NCBI GenBank assembly: GCA_965221955.1
Contig: CBDCTA010000028.1
Coordinates: 1-64,000 of the forward strand
DNA length: 64,000 nucleotides
Source of the DNA: Gammaproteobacteria bacterium
Lineage (GTDB): Bacteria > Pseudomonadota > Gammaproteobacteria > UBA4575
Reading direction: 5' to 3'
How positions within the stretch are numbered: the first letter of the stretch is position 1; each line of letters begins with the position of its first letter. Position numbers and translations under genes: made by a program. Of the stretch, positions 33,915-43,122 are shown in pieces. The notes beneath the pieces were generated by a model, which did not search any database, was not told the DNA's origin, and saw nothing but the letters and a program-made list of their open reading frames with translations.

Positions 33915-36900
33915 ATGAGCATTTTTAATCCCCCACTGCCTGGAAACGAGCATAGTCATGTTACTTGGGGACGCACCTATGGCTGCAGCAAAGGATTAGC
34001 CTTAGCGAAAGCTGTAGAGCAATTCAACGGGCTGACGTTAATCATTACACCCGATATTCAGACTGCTCATAGCTTAGAAAGTGAATTGAAGTTCTTTTGT
34101 ATCCAGGGCATCAATATTTATTTATTCCCTGATTTGGAAACCCTTCCATACGATGTTTTCTCCCCACATGAAGATATCATTTCTGATCGCATTTTAGCCT
34201 TAAGCGCTTTACCCAAAACTCAGCAAGGTGCATTAATCATTTCCGCAGGGACAATTTTATCCAAGCTGGCTTCAAAAGATTTTATTTTAGGACAGACATT
34301 AAACTTAAAAATTAATGATCAATTACATTTAGAAAACTTCAAACATACACTTACTAAGGCAGGTTACCAATACGTGTCGCAAGTCGTCACACATGGCGAG
34401 TTTGCCGTTCGAGGTTCCATCATCGACTTATTTCCTATGGGATCAAATCATCCCTATCGAATTGATTTATTCGATGATGAGATTGAAACCATTCGAATCT
34501 TTAATCCAGAAACTCAAGTTTCTACAGATAAGGTAGGTACATTACAAGTTCTACCTGCACGTGAATTTCCAACAGACGAAAATGCAATTAAACGTTTTCG
34601 ACAAAACTATCGCATTCAATTTGAAGGCGACCCAAATAAGAGTGTAATCTATCGTGGTGTCAGCAATAATAATTTGCCTGCTGGAATTGAATATTACTTA
34701 CCTTTATTTTGCGAAGAAACCAGCACATTTTTTGATTTTATTCCAGAAAACAGCCAGCTGGTTTTGATTGAAGACATCGTTGATATTGCTATGGATTTTG
34801 AAAACGATGTGTTTTATCGCTACGAACAACGCAAATACGATTTAGAACGCCCACCATTGCATCCTAAGCAAGTATGGATATCAACTGATTTTTTTGAAAA
34901 GAATTTATTTAAATTCAACACCATTAAGTTACAACAATATGAATTAGAACATTTACATCGTGATCAATATAACTTTGATGCACAAGCACTCCCTACTCTT
35001 ACTATTAACTCACGCATCAAAGATCCTGCAAGTGAATTAATTCGTTTTATTGAATCCGGTACAAAGAAAATATTGTTTTTAGCTGAATCTGCTGGTCGTC
35101 GTGAATATATTCTAGATGTACTTAAAGGATTTAAAATTATCCCTACTGTTGTGGACTCATGGCCAGAGTTTTTATCTTCAGAACTTTCTTTAGCCATCAC
35201 ATTAGGGCCTTTAGATGATGGGTTGCTACTACAACAAGAAAATATTGCCATTATTACTGAAAGCAATTTATTTGGTGCAAAGGCAAAACAGAAACGCAAA
35301 CGACGTCGACAGATCCGCGATGCAGAATCTCTAATTAAGAACCTTTCAGATTTAAGCGAAGGTTCACCAGTAGTACATGAAGATCATGGTGTAGGAAGAT
35401 ATAAAGGCTTAAAAACGCTTAGCCTGAGTGGTACCGATACTGAGTTTCTCATTCTTGAATATGCGGAAGGCGATATTCTATATGTACCGGTTTCATCTTT
35501 GCACTTGGTCAGTCGATATAGCGGTGCCTCTGAAGAAAATGCGCCTTTACATCATTTGGGTGGCGATGCATGGAAAAATATTAAACGTCGTGCCGCAAAA
35601 CGAGCTCAAGATGTCGCGGCAGAATTATTAGACATTTATTCCAGACGTGAAGCCAAACAAGGTTTCCAATATAAAATCGATGTGATTGAGTTCAACGCTT
35701 TTTGCAATTCCTTCCCCTATGAAGAAACCCCCGATCAACTAAAAGCTATTGAGGATGTCATTTCAGACATGGAGTCGAAACGCCCCATGGATAGAGTTGT
35801 CTGCGGTGACGTAGGCTTTGGCAAAACTGAAGTGGCGATGCGCGCTGCATTTATAGCGGCAAATGCAGGAAAACAAGTTGCAGTATTGGTTCCAACCACT
35901 CTTCTAAGCTCACAACACTTTCAAAATTTCAGTGATCGATTCGCAGACTTGGCAATTGAAATAGAAACTCTATCAAGATTTGTTCCTGCCAAAAAACAAA
36001 AACAAGTACTAACCGGACTTGAAGACGGCCAAGTTGATATTGTGATTGGCACCCATAAACTATTTAACTCAGCAATTAAGTTTAAAAACTTAGGCCTTGT
36101 AATTGTTGATGAAGAGCAACGCTTTGGTGTTCGTCAAAAAGAAATACTTAAAAAAATGCGTACTGAAGTCGATATTCTCACATTAACTGCAACTCCAATT
36201 CCAAGAACTTTGAACATGTCTTTAAGTGGCTTACGTGATTTATCTATCATCGCTACACCACCTAATTTGCGCCTTGCAATAAAAACGTTCGTTGGTACAT
36301 GGAACGATGGCATGATTCAAGAAGCTTGTATGCGCGAAATGAAGCGTGGTGGTCAAGTATTCTTTTTACACAATGAAGTAAAAACCATCGAAAAAGCTGC
36401 CAAAGATATCCAGCAGTTACTTCCTGACAGCGCTATTCGTATTGCTCATGGCCAAATGCCAGAAAAAGAATTAGAACAAGTAATGTTAGATTTTTACCAT
36501 CAACGATTTAGCATTTTAGTTTGCACAACGATTATCGAAAACGGAATTGATATACCCACTGCAAACACCATTATTATTAACCGTGCTGATAAACTTGGAC
36601 TTTCACAGTTACATCAAATACGCGGTCGTGTAGGCCGATCACACCACCGTGCCTATGCTTATTTAATTGCCCCACCACGTCCAGCGATGACAGCTGATGC
36701 GGTTAAACGTTTAGAAGCGATTGAATCATTAGAAGACCTAGGTGTTGGCTTTACTCTTGCCACCCATGACCTTGAAATTCGAGGTGCCGGTGAATTATTA
36801 GGTGCTGAACAAAGTGGTCAAATCCATGAAGTAGGTTTTACATTGTATAACGAATTATTGGGTCGGGCAGTAGAAGCGTTAAAAGCAGGCGAAATACCAG

Positions 36901-37370
36901 ATTTGGATCAACCGATGGATCAAGGCATTGAAGTTAATCTAGGTGTGCCTGCGCTCATCCCGGATGATTATTTACCTGACATACATGGAAGGTTAGTCAT
37001 GTATAAACGCATTGCTAGCGCAAAAACCAGCGATGATTTAGATGATCTCGAAATCGAATTAATTGATCGTTACGGATTATTACCTGAATTTGCTAAAAAT
37101 TTATTCTTAGTCACCCATCTAAAACTGCTTGCAAGTAGCTTTGGTGTATCACGAATTGAAATGAGCCATGAAACAGCGCGCATTCATTTTGGCAAGTCGC
37201 CAAATATCGATACTACGAAGATATTAGAGCTTATTCTTGAGCAACCTGATACTTATAAGCTTGATGGCTCCGAAAAGCTCACGGTTTATACAGAAACTGA
37301 AAATATTGGGGAACGAATTGACACCATCGTGAATCTATTAAATGATCTACAATTAAAACAAGCTGCTTAA
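33915..37370 (+). CDS. mfd: transcription-repair coupling factor
   Basis: 1151 aa; GDVGFGKTEVA, DEEQRFG, TATPIPRT, DLEIRGAGELLG. Confidence 0.98.
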   Translation: MSIFNPPLPGNEHSHVTWGRTYGCSKGLALAKAVEQFNGLTLIITPDIQTAHSLESELKFFCIQGINIYLFPDLETLPYDVFSPHEDIISDRILALSALPKTQQGALIISAGTILSKLASKDFILGQTLNLKINDQLHLENFKHTLTKAGYQYVSQVVTHGEFAVRGSIIDLFPMGSNHPYRIDLFDDEIETIRIFNPETQVSTDKVGTLQVLPAREFPTDENAIKRFRQNYRIQFEGDPNKSVIYRGVSNNNLPAGIEYYLPLFCEETSTFFDFIPENSQLVLIEDIVDIAMDFENDVFYRYEQRKYDLERPPLHPKQVWISTDFFEKNLFKFNTIKLQQYELEHLHRDQYNFDAQALPTLTINSRIKDPASELIRFIESGTKKILFLAESAGRREYILDVLKGFKIIPTVVDSWPEFLSSELSLAITLGPLDDGLLLQQENIAIITESNLFGAKAKQKRKRRRQIRDAESLIKNLSDLSEGSPVVHEDHGVGRYKGLKTLSLSGTDTEFLILEYAEGDILYVPVSSLHLVSRYSGASEENAPLHHLGGDAWKNIKRRAAKRAQDVAAELLDIYSRREAKQGFQYKIDVIEFNAFCNSFPYEETPDQLKAIEDVISDMESKRPMDRVVCGDVGFGKTEVAMRAAFIAANAGKQVAVLVPTTLLSSQHFQNFSDRFADLAIEIETLSRFVPAKKQKQVLTGLEDGQVDIVIGTHKLFNSAIKFKNLGLVIVDEEQRFGVRQKEILKKMRTEVDILTLTATPIPRTLNMSLSGLRDLSIIATPPNLRLAIKTFVGTWNDGMIQEACMREMKRGGQVFFLHNEVKTIEKAAKDIQQLLPDSAIRIAHGQMPEKELEQVMLDFYHQRFSILVCTTIIENGIDIPTANTIIINRADKLGLSQLHQIRGRVGRSHHRAYAYLIAPPRPAMTADAVKRLEAIESLEDLGVGFTLATHDLEIRGAGELLGAEQSGQIHEVGFTLYNELLGRAVEALKAGEIPDLDQPMDQGIEVNLGVPALIPDDYLPDIHGRLVMYKRIASAKTSDDLDDLEIELIDRYGLLPEFAKNLFLVTHLKLLASSFGVSRIEMSHETARIHFGKSPNIDTTKILELILEQPDTYKLDGSEKLTVYTETENIGERIDTIVNLLNDLQLKQAA

Positions 37371-37382
37371 ATCAATCATTAC

Positions 37383-38045
37383 ATGCCTTACTTTAATAAA
37401 ATCTTTCTACTCTCTGTTCTACTCGCCTTTTGCAACAATGCTTTCAGCAAGGACTATATCGTTGAAATGGTGTTTTTCGCGAATATGAAAAGCAATGCGG
37501 GTTCCGTACATGTATCCAACCAAGCCGTTATACCTGATCTGGGCGGTGCAATCACCTTAAATGAAGCTTCGCAATCGAAAGGCTTTATTCCCTTAAGTTC
37601 TGACACATTTCAGTTAAGCAATAAAGCTGCTGCACTGAATAAGTCTGGTAACTATCGTGTAATTAAACATATGTCCTGGCTACAACCCGGGCTAGCAAAA
37701 GAAGATGCCATTGCAGTGCGTGTACATGCTGGCAAAAATTACAAAGATGAATTTAAAGAGCGGTCTTTTGCACAAGCAAATTTTAGTGACCGACAAGTTC
37801 CAATCAATCACCCTGTCAATGAATTAGATGGCACGGTAAAAATCGTACTTGGACGTTTTCTACATTTATACACCGACTTAGCCTATCGAAAAACATTTAA
37901 TATCTCTTCAGGAGATGCCCTAGGTAGAAACCGCGTGCTTGCAGATTTTCCAGTTAAAACACATCGTAAAATGCGCAGCAAAACCCTACATTATATTGAC
38001 CATCCCTACCTTGGAATTCTAATTGAAATCCGCCCTGCTGGATGA
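37383..38045 (+). CDS. csiV: CsiV-family periplasmic protein
   Basis: Signal peptide, H..WLQP, RKMRS..LHYIDHPYLG; directly follows mfd. Confidence 0.8.
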   Translation: MPYFNKIFLLSVLLAFCNNAFSKDYIVEMVFFANMKSNAGSVHVSNQAVIPDLGGAITLNEASQSKGFIPLSSDTFQLSNKAAALNKSGNYRVIKHMSWLQPGLAKEDAIAVRVHAGKNYKDEFKERSFAQANFSDRQVPINHPVNELDGTVKIVLGRFLHLYTDLAYRKTFNISSGDALGRNRVLADFPVKTHRKMRSKTLHYIDHPYLGILIEIRPAG

Positions 38046-38050
38046 GTGAG

Positions 38051-38162
38051 TCCATGGATGTGAGCGCAGGACGACGTGCATGGATGCACTAGTGTCTCGG
38101 GAGACAGGATGTAGGGAGCGACCGCACGAATATGAGATCCATCAGGAATGATGCAACTGATT
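38051..38162 (+). repeat. left inverted repeat of island with GGA hairpins and nested insert
   Basis: 38127-38162 matches the reverse complement of 40598-40633 at 31/36; TGTGAGCGCA 38059-38068 matches 40642-40651. Confidence 0.8.
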
Positions 38163-38177
38163 AAAGATCTTTATTTA

Positions 38178-38209
38178 AAATGACCGCTTTCAGTCAATAG
38201 CAGTCATTT
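38178..38209 (+). repeat. 32-bp cassette site S1
   Basis: AAATGACCGCT-TTCAGTCAAT-AGCAGTCATTT. Confidence 0.85.
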
Positions 38210-38576
38210 ACGTTCTTGCTGACTGGGACCAATAATCGAGCTCGGCGATAATGTAATTAGCTACGGCTTCCTCAATTGAATTAAATTCAATTCGTTTTTC
38301 TGGATTCTCAAATAGCCAAATTTCATTGGATTCCGGAACCAGTACCCACCCACTAGATGTTCGTTTGTCCTCACAAAATTGAATCCAATCGTCAACATAT
38401 CTACTTTCTTTTCGTATCTCCTTGACAAGATCCTCTGGAACAACCATTTCTCGAAGGCTTTTGTAATGTGTTTGGTCGATTGCTTTTCGTAAAGATATGC
38501 CCTTACCACGAATCGACACATCTCGGCCAATCGAAAGAATATTTCTCAGATCCTCGCTTTGTGCTTTGGCTGGCAT
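38208..38576 (-). CDS. hypothetical protein (cassette 1)
   Basis: 122-aa ORF whose stop codon overlaps S1. Confidence 0.65.
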   Translation of the reverse strand: MPAKAQSEDLRNILSIGRDVSIRGKGISLRKAIDQTHYKSLREMVVPEDLVKEIRKESRYVDDWIQFCEDKRTSSGWVLVPESNEIWLFENPEKRIEFNSIEEAVANYIIAELDYWSQSART

Positions 38577-38676
38577 GGCGTCTTACAATTAATTAAAGCG
38601 CATAAACTAAATTCTAATATGTTTTTAAGTGACAGAAATGTATTGCAATTGAAACCTTATATTTATACAGAATCTG

Positions 38677-38708
38677 CAACGTTCGCTTTGGGTCGAATGC
38701 AGTCGAAA
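38677..38708 (+). repeat. 32-bp cassette site S2 (degenerate)
   Basis: CAACGTTCGCT-TTGGGTCGAA-TGCAGTCGAAA. Confidence 0.7.
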
Positions 38709-38710
38709 TA

Positions 38711-39025
38711 TTATTTTGAATCATACATGGCATTATCATAAAGGTGGTGAAACATATCTTCTGTCAACTCAGGACAAATCCCTAGAATTGCTTTCATAAA
38801 ATCATCCTTCTCTATCTCCTTGCCCCAACGCTTAAATGATAACTCCCATAAGGCTTCATTCATTTTTACCCCTACTTTTATTGCTTCATCAATTTCTGTA
38901 GCGGAATAATTTGAATAATTTTGAAGTAGTATTGCTTTGGCTTCATCAAGCTTTCCTCTACGACTCAACCAACATGCATCAATATGAATGTTATTAAAAC
39001 TATTGTCGTATCCAAGTCCACTCAT
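38711..39025 (-). CDS. hypothetical protein (cassette 2)
   Basis: 104-aa ORF filling S2-S3. Confidence 0.65.
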   Translation of the reverse strand: MSGLGYDNSFNNIHIDACWLSRRGKLDEAKAILLQNYSNYSATEIDEAIKVGVKMNEALWELSFKRWGKEIEKDDFMKAILGICPELTEDMFHHLYDNAMYDSK

Positions 39026-39035
39026 ATCTTCAACT

Positions 39036-39067
39036 TTATGTACGCTTTGGGTCGTTAGTGATCATTT
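39036..39067 (+). repeat. 32-bp cassette site S3
   Basis: TTATGTACGCT-TTGGGTCGTT-AGTGATCATTT. Confidence 0.8.
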
Positions 39068-39375
39068 ATCCTTATCTTTGAGGACATAATTAGAATTAAA
39101 CCTACGATTAGGCTAATGATAAAAATTATAAGTGAGAAGGGTCTTTCTAACACCCAAAAAATTAATCTTTGCAACTCTTGCCAATCCATATCAAGTAATT
39201 TTGTGAAGTCAATATTTAATTTTTGGAGAACTTCATAAAACCGCAATGAAAACCACTCCCCATACTTAATCCAAAAATAACCTTGGTAAGCTAGAATCAC
39301 TAAAGTTGCGAAGAAGCCTGCACTAATAATAAATATTCCAGCATCACTTATTTTTTCCGATTGTTTAGTTCTCAT
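39055..39375 (-). CDS. hypothetical membrane protein (cassette 3)
   Basis: 106 aa, two TM segments; stop codon inside S3. Confidence 0.65.
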   Translation of the reverse strand: MRTKQSEKISDAGIFIISAGFFATLVILAYQGYFWIKYGEWFSLRFYEVLQKLNIDFTKLLDMDWQELQRLIFWVLERPFSLIIFIISLIVGLILIMSSKIRINDH

Positions 39376-39464
39376 GTTAATGCAATTAAAATATTAGAAT
39401 CTTTTTCCCAGTATTGTTTATTTATCGTTTTGTTCAGCTTGAATGATCAGATTAGCCTAACGTT

Positions 39465-39496
39465 AAATGTCCGATTAGGGTCGATAGCGGTCATTT
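39465..39496 (+). repeat. 32-bp cassette site S4
   Basis: AAATGTCCGAT-TAGGGTCGAT-AGCGGTCATTT. Confidence 0.85.
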
Positions 39497-39797
39497 ATTG
39501 ATATGTGAAATATTCAAACTCTCGATCTCTCGCAAATTGGGTTTTGCATAATTCATAACCCTTGTCCCATGCAGACGTGTACAAATCATCTTTTAAATAC
39601 GCCTCGCTTCGTTTAAAGGTTGACATAAAATTGCCTGCAACCTCCCAGCCACTGTTGCAACCATCTGTATAGCCTTGCTTATATGCCAATGGTGTATTCT
39701 CAGGTAGTGTATTTCTGTATTCATCATAGGCACCATAGGGGTCATTAGCACAAGAAATAATCATAACGATTAATATTGTGATAATTATATGTTTCAT
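39495..39797 (-). CDS. hypothetical lipoprotein (cassette 4)
   Basis: Lipobox IISC; YKQGYTDGCNSG; stop codon overlaps S4. Confidence 0.7.
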   Translation of the reverse strand: MKHIIITILIVMIISCANDPYGAYDEYRNTLPENTPLAYKQGYTDGCNSGWEVAGNFMSTFKRSEAYLKDDLYTSAWDKGYELCKTQFARDREFEYFTYQ

Positions 39798-39821
39798 ATA
39801 AATAAATGATATTCAGTTTGT

Positions 39822-39853
39822 AAGTGTCCACTTTCGGTCAATAACGGACATTC
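39822..39853 (+). repeat. 32-bp cassette site S5
   Basis: AAGTGTCCACT-TTCGGTCAAT-AACGGACATTC. Confidence 0.8.
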
Positions 39854-39880
39854 GTTATTTAAATTTTTATTCTCAATTAT

Positions 39881-39918
39881 TGCATCATCTTGGTGCTCAG
39901 ATGCAACATGATAGTGCA
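39881..39918. promoter_or_regulatory. tandem NtrC-like enhancer sites
   Basis: TGCATC-ATCTT-GGTGCT (39881-39897) and TGCAAC-ATGAT-AGTGCA (39902-39918). Confidence 0.7.
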
Positions 39919-39992
39919 GCTTCAATTGCGCACTAGCTAAAGTCTTTACCTTTTCAATTATAAGTATCTAATAACATTGAAATAGTAGGTAC

Positions 39993-40008
39993 TGGCATAA
40001 CTTGTGCA
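39993..40008 (+). promoter_or_regulatory. sigma54 -24/-12 promoter of cynS
   Basis: TGGCATAACTTGTGCA, exact GG-N10-GC spacing. Confidence 0.8.
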
Positions 40009-40042
40009 TTGAATTGTTGTTATTTGTTATGGAGGAAATGAA

Positions 40043-40528
40043 ATGAACGAAATAATGACAGAACCAGTATGTGTGGTAAATAAAGCCATGTCCAAAGAAG
40101 AAATGACCGATTTAATCATTTCTGCAAAAAAAACAAAGGGGCTTTCATGGAAATCTATAGCAAACGAATTGAATGTTGGAGAGGCTTGGATTGCCTCAGC
40201 CTGCCTTGGAATGAATAGTACATCAGAGGTAATTGCAAATAAACTTTGCGATCTCCTCGAATTAGACGACAGAGTATGCACCCTGCTACAAGAGTACCCT
40301 CATAAAGAATGGGCTAAAGCAATCCCTCAAGACCCAGTTATCTATCGACTTTATGAAATTGTCGGAGTATATGGTGACACTATTAAAGAAATCATTGCTG
40401 AAAAATTTGGCGATGGAATTATGAGTGCTATTGATTTTTCAATGGACATCGACAAAGAGGAAAATCCAAAAGGCGATCGTGTTGTGATTACACTTAATGG
40501 TAAATTTTTAAAATATACATCGTGGTGA
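40043..40528 (+). CDS. cynS: cyanate hydratase (cyanase)
   Basis: PQDPVIYRLYEIVGVYG, EKFGDGIMSAIDF, GDRVVITLNGKFL. Confidence 0.96.
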   Translation: MNEIMTEPVCVVNKAMSKEEMTDLIISAKKTKGLSWKSIANELNVGEAWIASACLGMNSTSEVIANKLCDLLELDDRVCTLLQEYPHKEWAKAIPQDPVIYRLYEIVGVYGDTIKEIIAEKFGDGIMSAIDFSMDIDKEENPKGDRVVITLNGKFLKYTSW

Positions 40529-40552
40529 TTATTGGACTAGATGAATAATTAC

Positions 40553-40584
40553 AAATGTCCGCTTACGACTCAAAGCGGACATTT
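40553..40584 (-). repeat. 32-bp cassette site S6, inverted orientation
   Basis: AAATGTCCGCT-TACGACTCAA-AGCGGACATTT; perfect arms; core reverse complement TTGAGTCGTA. Confidence 0.85.
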
Positions 40585-40597
40585 TAATTAAAAATAG

Positions 40598-40651
40598 AAT
40601 CGGTTGCATCATCCTTGATGGACATCATATTCGCACATCCATGCGCTCACA
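40598..40651 (-). repeat. right inverted repeat of island
   Basis: Reverse complement of the 38059-38162 repeat without the internal insert. Confidence 0.8.
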
Positions 40652-40672
40652 CATTTGGGTCGCATGCAGGAA

Positions 40673-41413
40673 TCACAAATTCGCAACTACAGAACTCAAT
40701 ATTGTTTTCACTAAAGCCATTCCCTTTTCTATTGCTTGCTCAATTTCTTCCATAGTAATTTCTTGATTGGTTTTACCTGCAGCCCAATTAACGCATAATG
40801 CGCAACACGCATAATGCAAACCTAGTTCTTTCGCTAACGCCGCTTCTGGCATCCCTGTCATACCGACAATGTCGCAGCCATCTTTTTCCATGCGATTAAT
40901 TTCTGATGCAGTTTCCAGCCGTGGACCTTGAGTGGCACCGTAAACACCACTTTGGTGTACATCGATATTTGAATGGGTCGCAGCATTTAATAGCTTTTTT
41001 CTAAGTGCTTCATTATAAGGATTTGTAAAATCAATATGGGTAACTTCAGATAAGTCGTCTTCGAAAAAAGTATGCTGTCGACCATACGTGTAATCGATAA
41101 TTTGGTCTGGAATGATAATTTTCTCTGGTGGAATGTCTTTATGTATCCCCCCTACTGCTGCCACTCCTATCACATCAGCCACTCCTAAACTTTTTAATGC
41201 CCAGATATTTGCACGGTAATTAATTTTATGTGGAGGAATAGTGTGATCATTCCCATGTCTCGCTAGAAAAACGACTTCATTTCCAGAAAGTTCTCCACTA
41301 ACGAGTGGCGCGCTCACTTCACCATATGGCGTCTCAATCGAATGAGTTTCGGTAATTGAAAGCTCATTGATGGCAGTAAGCCCTGTCCCTCCAATGATGG
41401 CAAGTTTTGTCAT
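40673..41413 (-). CDS. mtnP: S-methyl-5'-thioinosine/thioadenosine phosphorylase
   Basis: IIGGTG, ARHG..H.IPPH.INYRANI, QGPRLET, GMTGMPEA. Confidence 0.9.
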   Translation of the reverse strand: MTKLAIIGGTGLTAINELSITETHSIETPYGEVSAPLVSGELSGNEVVFLARHGNDHTIPPHKINYRANIWALKSLGVADVIGVAAVGGIHKDIPPEKIIIPDQIIDYTYGRQHTFFEDDLSEVTHIDFTNPYNEALRKKLLNAATHSNIDVHQSGVYGATQGPRLETASEINRMEKDGCDIVGMTGMPEAALAKELGLHYACCALCVNWAAGKTNQEITMEEIEQAIEKGMALVKTILSSVVANL

Positions 41414-41429
41414 TACTTATGGCTCTTTA

Positions 41430-41990
41430 TCAATCACTCTTAGCAATCGCGTAAATTGAAGACTGATTACGCAAATAACCTTTGTAATCCATCCCCCAAC
41501 CAAACACATAGCGATCTGTTACTTCCAACCCTAAAAAATCAGGCACCACGTTAACAGGTGTATTGGATAATTTTTTCTTTAGCAGTACAGCAGACAATAC
41601 ACGCTTCGCACCCTTTGCCTGACAATAGGCAATTAATTCTTGCAAGGTATATCCTTCGTCTAAAATATCATCAACGAGAACAACAATACGACCATCTAAT
41701 GATGTATCAGGTTCTTTATGCCAGTGGATACTACTGCCTTGAGTTTTATTACGATATCGATCGACGTGCACATAATCCAAAACCATAGGTGATTGAATAC
41801 GCTGCATTAATGCAGCGGTAAACATAAGCCCACCTTTCATTACGCACAATAAAATAGGCACTTCCCCATTGATCGTTGATTCAATTTGTTTCGCCACTAA
41901 ATCGATAGCGTTATTTATTTCTTGCTCAGAAACTAATACATCCGCATCGTCGCGAACTTGATTGACTTGTTGATGAGACAGATCTTCCAT
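41430..41990 (-). CDS. hpt: hypoxanthine-guanine phosphoribosyltransferase
   Basis: VLVDDILDEGYTL, YVFGWGMDY. Confidence 0.9.
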   Translation of the reverse strand: MEDLSHQQVNQVRDDADVLVSEQEINNAIDLVAKQIESTINGEVPILLCVMKGGLMFTAALMQRIQSPMVLDYVHVDRYRNKTQGSSIHWHKEPDTSLDGRIVVLVDDILDEGYTLQELIAYCQAKGAKRVLSAVLLKKKLSNTPVNVVPDFLGLEVTDRYVFGWGMDYKGYLRNQSSIYAIAKSD

Positions 41991-42003
41991 GAGCTACTTT
42001 TGA

Positions 42004-43122
42004 TCAATGATTGGCTTTTGTTAACACGCTGGTATCATTGTTTTCAATTTGAAGTACACGTGTAGGGAAAGCAATCTCTGCGTTATTTCTCTGAATAATA
42101 TCTGAAACCTTTAACAATACATCATGCTTAACTTCATGGAATTTAATCCAGTTCGTTGTTTTCGTAAATGTATAAATAAAGAAGTCAACTGAAGATTCAT
42201 TAAATTCATTAAAGTTGACGATCATTGTTTGATTGGTATCAATTTCTTCATGGTTGACTAACATTTCTTTTACATCGCTTACGATGGCATCCATCACAGC
42301 AATATCATTATATCGAATACCAATTGTTTCATAGATTCTTCTATGAGACATACGCGAAGGGTTCTCAACAATGATGTTCATGAAGATTGAATTGGGAACA
42401 TAAATAGGTCGCTTACTAAAAGTACGAATACGAGTTTGACGCCAACCAATTTCTTCCACAGTACCTTCTAATTTCTTATCAGGAGAACGGATCCAATCAC
42501 CGACTTTAAATGGACGATCTAAATAAATCATAAGCCCACCAAAGAAATTTGAAAGTAAATCTTTAGCAGCGAAACCAACTGCGATACCTCCTATACCTCC
42601 AAATGCCAAGACGCCGGAAATACTAAATCCAAGTGTTTGTAGCATAACAAGTGCAGCCGTTATAAAAATGGATGCGCGCACCAACTTTGCTAATGCATGT
42701 GTTGTGGTTAAGTCAACAGATTTACCTTTTTGGCGTTGCTGATAGACATAGGCTTTTTCAAATTCTTTTACAAAGCGAATTAAAAACCACACCAAAGTAG
42801 CAACAATAGTTACATTCCTTATTGGTTCTATTGCTCGAAAGATTTCTGCATCAGTTTGGCTAGCGACAATATCAGCAGCAAATAAAACACCAATAACCCA
42901 TACTAGAAGGCGGAAAGGTTTGTTCGCCGCTTGGATAAATGCATCGTCCCAGGGGTTAGCAGTATTTTCTGCTCTTGATGCTAATTTTCTTAAAAATAAT
43001 TTAAATGCAAAATTAACTAATAAAACAGCCAATACAATGATGAATACTTCCAACACCCATGGCTTGAAATACATCGCTAAACTTGAATCACCAAATAATT
43101 TTGTAATATCGATATTATTCAT
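42004..43122 (-). CDS. MscS-family mechanosensitive channel (YnaI-like)
   Basis: AFGGIGGIAVGFAAKDLLSNFFGG, PFKVGDWI. Confidence 0.92.
   Translation of the reverse strand: MNNIDITKLFGDSSLAMYFKPWVLEVFIIVLAVLLVNFAFKLFLRKLASRAENTANPWDDAFIQAANKPFRLLVWVIGVLFAADIVASQTDAEIFRAIEPIRNVTIVATLVWFLIRFVKEFEKAYVYQQRQKGKSVDLTTTHALAKLVRASIFITAALVMLQTLGFSISGVLAFGGIGGIAVGFAAKDLLSNFFGGLMIYLDRPFKVGDWIRSPDKKLEGTVEEIGWRQTRIRTFSKRPIYVPNSIFMNIIVENPSRMSHRRIYETIGIRYNDIAVMDAIVSDVKEMLVNHEEIDTNQTMIVNFNEFNESSVDFFIYTFTKTTNWIKFHEVKHDVLLKVSDIIQRNNAEIAFPTRVLQIENNDTSVLTKANH

Follow-up and report, generated by a model that had tools for sequence, protein, structure and literature searches.

The attC sites of integrons are imperfect palindromes of 57–141 bp bounded by R'' and R' boxes (RYYYAAC ... 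GTTRRRY). Families of repetitive extragenic palindromes (REPs) are lineage-specific. In Neisseria, Correia elements are short repeats with promoter and terminator functions and no known transposase, and the "minimal mobile elements" are gene-sized variable inserts between conserved flanks, with exchange credited to transformation and flank homology. REPs have been described as typically paired, the pairs being named REPINs (PMC5581495), and dif modules as gene modules flanked by Xer sites (PMC7399989, PMC6449649, PMC13141974). Here we describe an integron-like cassette system that is built on a REP-like site, found in a 64,000-nucleotide stretch of a gammaproteobacterial genome of the UBA4575 lineage (positions 1 to 64,000 of contig CBDCTA010000028.1, assembly GCA_965221955.1; hereafter the window). 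A 2.6-kb block between the genes csiV and mtnP in the window is one of ~46 clusters of this site in the genome. We tentatively favor, at slightly less than an even chance, a dedicated site-specific enzyme as the candidate agent that acts in trans on the sites.

The arrays resemble those of integrons and of clusters of attC sites lacking integron-integrases (CALINs) in that mostly single, unrelated, co-oriented accessory open reading frames (ORFs) are each followed by a palindromic site; as in integrons, arrays differ between close strains and one cassette can occur in several arrays. They depart from integrons in having no integron integrase (IntI), a site of 28–32 bp (~105 bp in doublets) that lacks the boxes, and dozens of small intergenic arrays. 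Like REPs, bacterial interspersed mosaic elements (BIMEs) and REPINs, the sites are high-copy extragenic imperfect palindromes at gene ends, in several variants, that are inherited across the genus, and they share with REPs the occurrence of singlets along with doublets of fixed spacing. However, they lack a REP-associated tyrosine transposase (RAYT), cluster around single genes, coincide with homology break points and share one sequence across families of differing GC content. Small modules, 28-bp arm-spacer-arm sites, a recombinase that would be encoded elsewhere and shuffling between replicons recall the pdif modules of Acinetobacter, whereas the present sites are chromosomal, directly repeated within arrays and without sequence relation to the host dif. 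Correia elements and minimal mobile elements have another sequence and structure, and there repeats do not bound every gene. The arrays fail a defining feature of each of integrons, REPs or REPINs, and Acinetobacter dif modules. Searches of an open-access full-text library gave no description of the site or of such arrays, and two long site strings occurred in 0 papers there.

A genome-wide site family with one gene per interval

The source assembly (G000; 2.69 Mb, 96.6% complete, estimated contamination 4.3%) holds the window on its contig C28; other G-numbers denote relatives. Allowing up to two mismatches, the arm pattern had 152 matches in this assembly compared with 3 for a reversed control, and core filtering gave 172 sites, 89 of class A and 83 of class B. 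The sites are imperfect palindromes of 28–32 bp with systematic mismatches between the arms. Their broad consensus has 11-bp arms and a 6-bp asymmetric core, which is GGGTCG in class A (TTGGGTCGTT) and CGGCCA in class B (TTCGGCCAAT). Sites occur singly or as A-B doublets with a total length of ~101–111 bp. G000 has 32 doublets, whose starts are 73 bp apart in 14 doublets and 83 bp apart in 10, and their spacer is conserved (GGTTGGAATCAAT...). Pairing across the two hairpins of a doublet (8.1 and 6.7 of 9) is about equal to local pairing (7.2 and 7.3 of 9).

Most sites (158 of 172) have another site within 3 kb. Together they form ~46 clusters of up to 24 sites on 18 contigs, a count that includes some clusters twice because the assembly holds strain-variant duplicates. 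Within arrays, sites stand in direct orientation. We considered an uptake signal of the kind known as uptake signal sequences or DNA uptake sequences (USS/DUS) and rejected it, as 126 of 139 occurrences of the 9-mer arm lie inside sites. At 119 of 157 sites the orientation agrees with the local GC skew, so that most cassette genes face the direction of replication. As sites and genes are co-oriented, this agreement may merely mirror ordinary gene-strand bias, and we did not use it in favor of a single-strand mechanism.

The original prediction, made from the window alone, suggested testing whether site matches across the genome come in arrays with one gene per interval, and for the most part they do. 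We counted ORFs of at least 45 aa in 95 intervals of 150–3000 bp between consecutive sites. One ORF was present in 69 intervals, two in 19, three or more in 6 and none in 1, and the median site-to-site interval was 491 bp. The canonical orientation was shown by 99 ORFs and the opposite one by 23. ORF ends abutted a site 77 times in the expected orientation and 16 times in the opposite orientation, compared with 12.7 and 14.3 for random positions. The cassette ORFs are mostly unrelated to each other, and those with a named function are accessory-like, including cyanase, GNAT, SbtA, an Na/H exchanger, M48 and M23 peptidases, HSP20, a hydrolase, TPR and a cyclase.

Scans for sigma-70 promoters and terminators showed no enrichment in the window or in the array on contig C5. 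A generic promoter scan found 20 matches where 28.5 were expected. Intrinsic terminators have a GC-rich stem, a loop of 3–8 nt and a T tract; we rejected this identity for the sites, which have a loop of 10 nt, since terminator counts were not above shuffles (3 versus 2.3 and 4 versus 3.1). The three terminator-like matches in the window overlap sites 6, 1 and 4, and only site 6 was called through its own arms. A motif of the form TTGGAA-N16-18-NANNNT is present in 25 of the 32 doublet spacers, facing the next ORF. Given that the scans showed no enrichment, a promoter-like role for this motif is conjectural.

Array differences between strains and the csiV–mtnP array

Seven pairs of G000 contigs match at 94–99.8% identity (C14/C23, C10/C29, C11/C26, C3/C19, C6/C24, C12/C13 and C8/C18) and look like strain variants or duplicated regions. 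Several contig pairs diverge solely within site arrays. The 99% identical flanks of C14 and C23 enclose an array of 4.1 kb in C14 and of 12.4 kb in C23, and flanks of the same identity in C10 and C29 enclose 1.4 kb and 4 kb, respectively; in both pairs, homology stops on sites. Self-comparison of the genome gave 59 internal homology break points, and 19 of these lie within 30 nt of a site, as does 0.56% of the genome. Many of the remaining 40 are merely the end of the partner contig. Cassettes are also found at changed positions. A 1492-bp cassette common to C14 and C23 occupies different array positions in the two, with a core flip at one end. A 780-bp cassette shared by C5 (756–1534) and C26 (70422–69643) at 86% identity is limited by sites, its match beginning in an A site and stopping directly after a B site. 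The self-comparison also showed long tandem repeats at C22:1–1926 and C29:662144–663592, with periods of ~339 and ~294 bp.

The window array is described by the following features, in which T stands for an end repeat treated below and cassette ORFs are numbered from the csiV side.

37383..38045, plus strand: csiV, conserved left flank gene (Pfam CsiV, E 1.3e-33)
38046..38162, minus strand: inverted T copy (core 38110–38162), abutting the csiV stop codon and split by a GC-rich insert of ~60 nt
38178..38209, plus strand: site 1, B-like core TTCAGTCAAT; hairpin of −5.6 kcal/mol, z −6.3
38208..38576, minus strand: cassette ORF 1, 122 aa, without known family (no Pfam/NCBIfam match)
38677..38708, plus strand: site 2, degenerate class A, core TTGGGTCGAA; 63% identity to the reference copy, no significant hairpin
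38711..39025, minus strand: cassette ORF 2, 104 aa, without known family (no Pfam/NCBIfam match)
39036..39067, plus strand: site 3, class A, core TTGGGTCGTT, decayed arms
39055..39375, minus strand: cassette ORF 3, 106 aa, without known family (no Pfam/NCBIfam match); stop codon within site 3
39465..39496, plus strand: site 4, class A; hairpin z −2.7
39495..39797, minus strand: cassette ORF 4, 100 aa, without known family (no Pfam/NCBIfam match)
39822..39853, plus strand: site 5, B-like core TTCGGTCAAT, between the divergent ORF 4 and cynS
40043..40528, plus strand: cynS (cyanase) cassette gene, with ~190 nt of DNA upstream (Pfam Cyanate_lyase, E 5.5e-37; NCBIfam cynS equivalog)
40553..40584, minus strand: site 6, class A, inverted, perfect 12-bp stem; −12.3 kcal/mol, z −8.4
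40598..40650, plus strand: T end repeat, outer end towards mtnP (from inverted-repeat search and genome BLAST)
40651..40672, plus strand: half-site remnant TTTGGGTCGCATGCAG, abutting the mtnP stop codon; direct repeat with site 2
40673..41413, minus strand: mtnP-like phosphorylase, conserved right flank gene (Pfam PNP_UDP_1, E 2.9e-44), present in 15 of 15 genus genomes

Much of what had been predicted for this array was reproduced. Repeat finding recovered one family of six 32-nt copies (at 38178, 38677, 39036, 39465, 39822 and 40553) with the claimed spacings of 499, 359, 429, 357 and 731, and each of the five intervals has one main ORF. The stop codons of the four minus-strand genes lie within a site or at most 2 nt from one, and two ORFs start 10 and 24 nt from the next site, as claimed. 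Site 6 is inverted together with its gene, cynS, so each gene of the array has behind it a site that points the same way relative to that gene. A strict consensus with up to three mismatches recovered three of the six sites and had 0 matches in 100 shuffles. Two claims held only in part. Fixed 11-bp arms are supported at sites 1, 4 and 6, which form DNA hairpins above shuffles, but those of sites 2, 3 and 5 have decayed. The GTC of the core, described as invariant, is so inside the window, whereas class B, which makes up about half of all sites in the genome (83 of 172), has a GGCC core.

Pfam and NCBIfam searches of the window array named only the two flanks and cynS, leaving the four small ORFs unmatched, and a word-limited protein search with ORF 1, covering near lengths only, returned the query itself as the sole match. 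By similarity of MtnP, the closest named relatives are Methylococcales-type Gammaproteobacteria (60–65% identity). Positions 36000–43000 had no Rfam match at E ≤ 1. A second, partial cynS with 80% identity to the window copy is present in G000 at a contig end (C20:17178–17385). As cynS is also present in site-free relatives, the window cynS looks like an extra, cassette-borne copy.

The gene order mfd-csiV ... mtnP-hpt is conserved in 10 genus loci plus L023 and L024, and the contents of the csiV–mtnP gap differ between species, as follows.

G011: 67 bp, no site
G002: about 216 bp, no site
G014: about 0.7 kb, no site
Five other genomes: 1.1–1.4 kb, no site
G004: 2.0 kb, 4 sites
G000 (window): 2.6 kb, 6 sites
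G005: 2.8 kb, 3 sites
G007: 3.9 kb, no site

Gain, loss or reordering of cassettes exactly at the sites had been suggested as a check at this junction, and with a gap that ranges from 67 bp to 3.9 kb between species, we found that strain and species differences do break at sites. The cynS cassette (39825–40564, from site 5 to site 6) recurs with 84% identity in two other species, represented by G004 and G002, at a locus other than this one; further genomes match it in the coding part alone (67%–76%). Alignment of this cassette with G004 puts the start of homology within site 5, in its core or right arm, and the end within site 6, where the left arm meets the core, which is itself flipped. DNA matching cassette 4 at 72% is present in G019, a member of another genus; there, one end of the matching stretch is overlapped by a B site, and the closest A site is ~530 nt outside the other end. 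With break points at sites and the same cassettes recurring elsewhere, the intervals can be regarded as gene cassettes, as proposed. The strain break points, together with the cassette limits at sites, would place the point of exchange between the two arms.

The window array is also bracketed by an inverted repeat that the original prediction did not include (38127–38162 and 40598–40633; 36 nt, 86% complementary). BLAST of both window ends against the genome showed that it belongs to T, a 53-nt repeat with 23 copies in G000, mostly at outer array ends and with its AATCTGTTGC end towards the array. T often lies 20 nt from a site and is followed by a half site, as also seen at other array ends. 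Copies are inverted at both ends of three arrays (the window, C22:39.5–40.7k and C17:16.4–17.2k), and those in the window lie directly against the csiV and mtnP stop codons. One search recovered T from 11 of 14 genus genomes and from 0 of 10 others, and it is absent from the site-free G013. In G004, an inverted T with the GC-rich end adjoins a lone cynS cassette. T folded no better than shuffles. T could serve as a landing pad or mark the terminus of an array. The GC-rich element of ~60 nt that splits the left T copy of this AT-rich genome (window 38069–38136) has further copies at C6:3284–3337, C3:17889–17952, C3:87068–87155 and C29:283162–283216, and showed no Rfam match and no significant fold.

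Distribution of the site in other bacteria

Within the genus, 13 of 14 genomes have 32–204 copies of the site. Five other genera of the family are likewise rich in it, and five genera with small genomes stay at background level. A survey of 400 genomes that represent 240 families of the class showed just one site-rich family besides this one, and a few other genomes had one to six genuine-looking copies. The second family is represented by G038 (34 copies, GC 54%), in which the same gene-site arrays, with larger cassettes, are found downstream of rpoD. The site is present in 13 IMG/VR contigs of 54%–62% GC, always within ~1 kb of a contig end, and in at least 120 metagenome stretches, of which 80 loci (L245–L324; median GC 56%) form the basis of our metagenome figures. 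The metagenome consensus, ATGTCCGCTTT-GGGTCA-AAAGCGGACAT, has the same 11-6-11 layout, and tandem triplets occur ~45 nt apart with the loops GGGTCA, ACCCCCA and GTGCCA. At 6 of the 80 loci the site adjoins GAF histidine kinases. In a plasmid collection, a metagenome triplet had just two matches, both weak and irrelevant.

Genomes of 38% and 54% GC and metagenome contigs of median 56% GC share the same arms and cores. One sequence across such different base compositions argues for recognition by a conserved protein and is the strongest point for it. The most far-reaching reading is a site-specific cassette system not described before, in which a conserved enzyme would recognize the 28-bp, 11-6-11 site with its two heterospecific cores and would insert, excise and invert single-gene cassettes at dozens of intergenic spots of the chromosome. 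Such a distributed integron without integrase or attC, shared by unrelated bacteria of 38% and ~54%–56% GC, seems to us unlikely, although not far-fetched.

Candidate enzymes, alternative explanations and meaning

If a dedicated enzyme acts on the sites, they would be the joints of single-gene cassettes, and each cassette would carry the inner half of a site on either side, the right half upstream and the left half downstream. The putative enzyme would cut in or at the core. Recombination inside sites would then allow cassettes to be gained, lost, moved and inverted, and its occurrence at many intergenic spots would result in small arrays. Cores A and B may be heterospecific variants that are kept from recombining with each other. 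Palindromic arms would allow inversion, which could account for the core flips and for the inversion of the cynS cassette. What the data show directly is the site family with its clustering, fixed orientation and one-gene intervals, and the coincidence of break points and cassette limits with sites; we infer that exchange is site-specific rather than homology-driven, where the crossover lies and that there is an enzyme.

Gene shuffling by a recombinase acting in trans, as originally proposed, is borne out in the behavior of the cassettes but not in the action of a recombinase, which was found neither beside arrays nor in family searches. Contig C28 has no tyrosine recombinase, serine recombinase or Y1 transposase match, in agreement with the statement that the window encodes none. 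The suggestion that a tyrosine recombinase or an HUH/RAYT gene might sit beside some arrays yielded no candidate. The only recombinase matches of the family searches in G000 were XerC, XerD, one 437-aa integrase and one large serine recombinase. Phage_integrase matches numbered 21 in G019 and 3–5 in the other genomes searched, and G019 has a group of three neighboring tyrosine recombinase genes (C1:1248531–1258175) in which two sites are interspersed.

Several observations weigh against a dedicated enzyme. Searches of G000 with the IntI, Phage_integrase, Resolvase and Y1_Tnp families gave no candidate, the complete, site-rich G010 has only XerC, XerD and one other integrase, and no recombinase was found by Pfam among 20 array or array-flanking proteins of G000 and G038. 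Contigs of an independent metagenome run bridge sites 3, 4 and 5 in window order at ~99% identity, which indicates that the window array is not in rapid flux. No RNA run was listed for the region, and contigs of four sequencing runs mapped on it gave no trustworthy excision joint. The sole two joints (39058 or 39067 to 40598, short side 21–30 nt) both link a site to T, a junction present at other loci, and are therefore read as repeat cross-matches rather than excision. Because the sites are nearly identical, break points cannot separate a site-specific crossover from homologous exchange in a repeat of 28–110 bp. At three of the six sites in the window array the arms have decayed (z −0.6 for site 2, −0.3 for site 3 and 0.0 for site 5), and the layout of singlets, doublets and tandem triplets resembles that of REPs and BIMEs. 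At 27 of the 80 metagenome loci, sites adjoin, and mostly follow, paralogous PF04392 ABC substrate-binding genes, which need not be cassettes.

These observations bear on the possibility that the sites are passive REP/BIME-like repeats, host-maintained or selfish, that supply portable homology for RecA-dependent or template-switch exchange after transfer among relatives, and that perhaps also serve as hairpins at mRNA 3' and 5' ends with a promoter-like spacer in doublets. We consider this a real possibility, if a somewhat doubtful one. Its strongest point is the BIME-like layout in metagenomes, with triplets ~45 nt apart that add to the singlets and the 32 doublets of fixed 73- or 83-bp spacing in G000. 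Passive repeats would also fit sites at gene 3' ends and between convergent genes, their spread through the genus and over several genera of its family, the lack of a recombinase beside arrays, and the motif in 25 of 32 doublet spacers. However, a Y1_Tnp/RAYT gene, which in REP systems is single-copy and usually has the repeats on both sides, is absent from G000, from the complete, site-rich G010, G014 and G019, and from G038, and was found in only 1 of 14 genus genomes. Scattering behind core genes like ordinary REPs, which had been named as evidence against gene capture, is seen in part, as there are ~46 clusters with REP/BIME-like units, but the clustering of 158 of 172 sites is extreme and unlike dispersal. 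One sequence across families of very different GC, promoter and terminator scans without enrichment, and the near equality of local and cross-hairpin pairing in doublets are further points against passive repeats.

Known recombination systems account for the arrays less well. Integron or CALIN arrays with an unusual attC, whose IntI is missing from the assembly, would explain the co-oriented single ORF per interval with a site at its 3' end (69 of 95 intervals; 99 versus 23 ORFs), and the doublets could fold as one long hairpin. This explanation is close to refuted. True IntI is present in 5 of 41 family genomes, one of which, G013, is the sole genus member without sites, whereas no IntI match at E ≤ 1e-30 was found in G000 or in the complete G010, G014, G001 and G019; the best G000 matches are XerD (83 bits) and XerC (77 bits), compared with a cut-off of 265 (TIGR02249). 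Classical integrons with IntI above cut-off occur at G013:C20, G015:C29, G426:C9, G436:C3 and G438:C1 (L148–L151), and three of the four integron loci examined (G015, G426 and G438) have long arrays of small co-oriented ORFs. These four loci hold 0 of the sites described here, and the repeats of the G426 array, the sole locus examined for repeats, are canonical attC (..CCTAAC.. / ..CTTGTTAGG). RYYYAAC/GTTRRRY boxes are absent from the consensus of the 32 doublets and from that of single sites, and the ~46 clusters stand in place of one platform, with attI and Pc, from which an array would grow, so the earlier view that the sites are not attC is upheld. It is highly improbable that the sites are dif-like Xer sites and the cassettes chromosomal analogues of Acinetobacter dif modules moved by XerC and XerD, even though the broad consensus has the 11-6-11, 28-bp geometry and XerC and XerD are the sole tyrosine recombinases common to the site-rich genomes examined. 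We rejected this identity because the arms of the canonical 28-bp host dif (C4:59807, minus strand) share nothing with the sites. Array sites are in direct orientation, whereas those of dif modules alternate, and the site-free G013 and G017 also have XerC and XerD. A large array (C23/C14) does begin ~0.9 kb from xerD, but xerD is in its usual place beside dsbC and the adjacency is probably chance. A small site cluster (C4:64595–65817) lies 4–6 kb from the host dif. Very unlikely, too, is exchange driven by a large serine recombinase that uses the sites as attachment sites. Its gene is part of a prophage-like module with DUF2924, terminase, DUF5681 and methylase genes (C26:85307–90600, L152:7305–12596), which in G000 lies 2.3 kb from two sites. 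Modules with ~70% identity to that of G000 are present in the site-rich G010, G011 and G019, and others with 37%–50% identity in L131, L135 and L136, three of the 13 IMG/VR contigs of GC-rich hosts that have the site, the recombinase stop codon in L136 being 105 nt from a site. However, the recombinase was found in only 4 of 41 relatives and not in G004 (204 sites), G002 (148) and G015 (142) or in the complete G014 (62) and G001 (64), and among the 80 best homologue viral loci we read at most 4 as having a genuine site. The split terminase and portal-like genes of the G019 module suggest a decaying prophage, and we regard the module as a neighboring prophage.

The system is directly testable, as complete genomes of site-rich relatives exist and natural negative controls are available in G013 of the same genus and, for the second family, in G255. 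It occurs in Gammaproteobacteria of marine origin and, to go by the metagenome contigs, also in bacteria of high GC content elsewhere. Even if the sites are passive, their portable homology would explain small flexible islands at many hot spots, as well as the breaks in assemblies at these spots. If they are true recombination joints, they would give a function to a REP-like family without RAYT, and these bacteria would have a second, integrase-free route to libraries of single accessory genes at many chromosomal positions.

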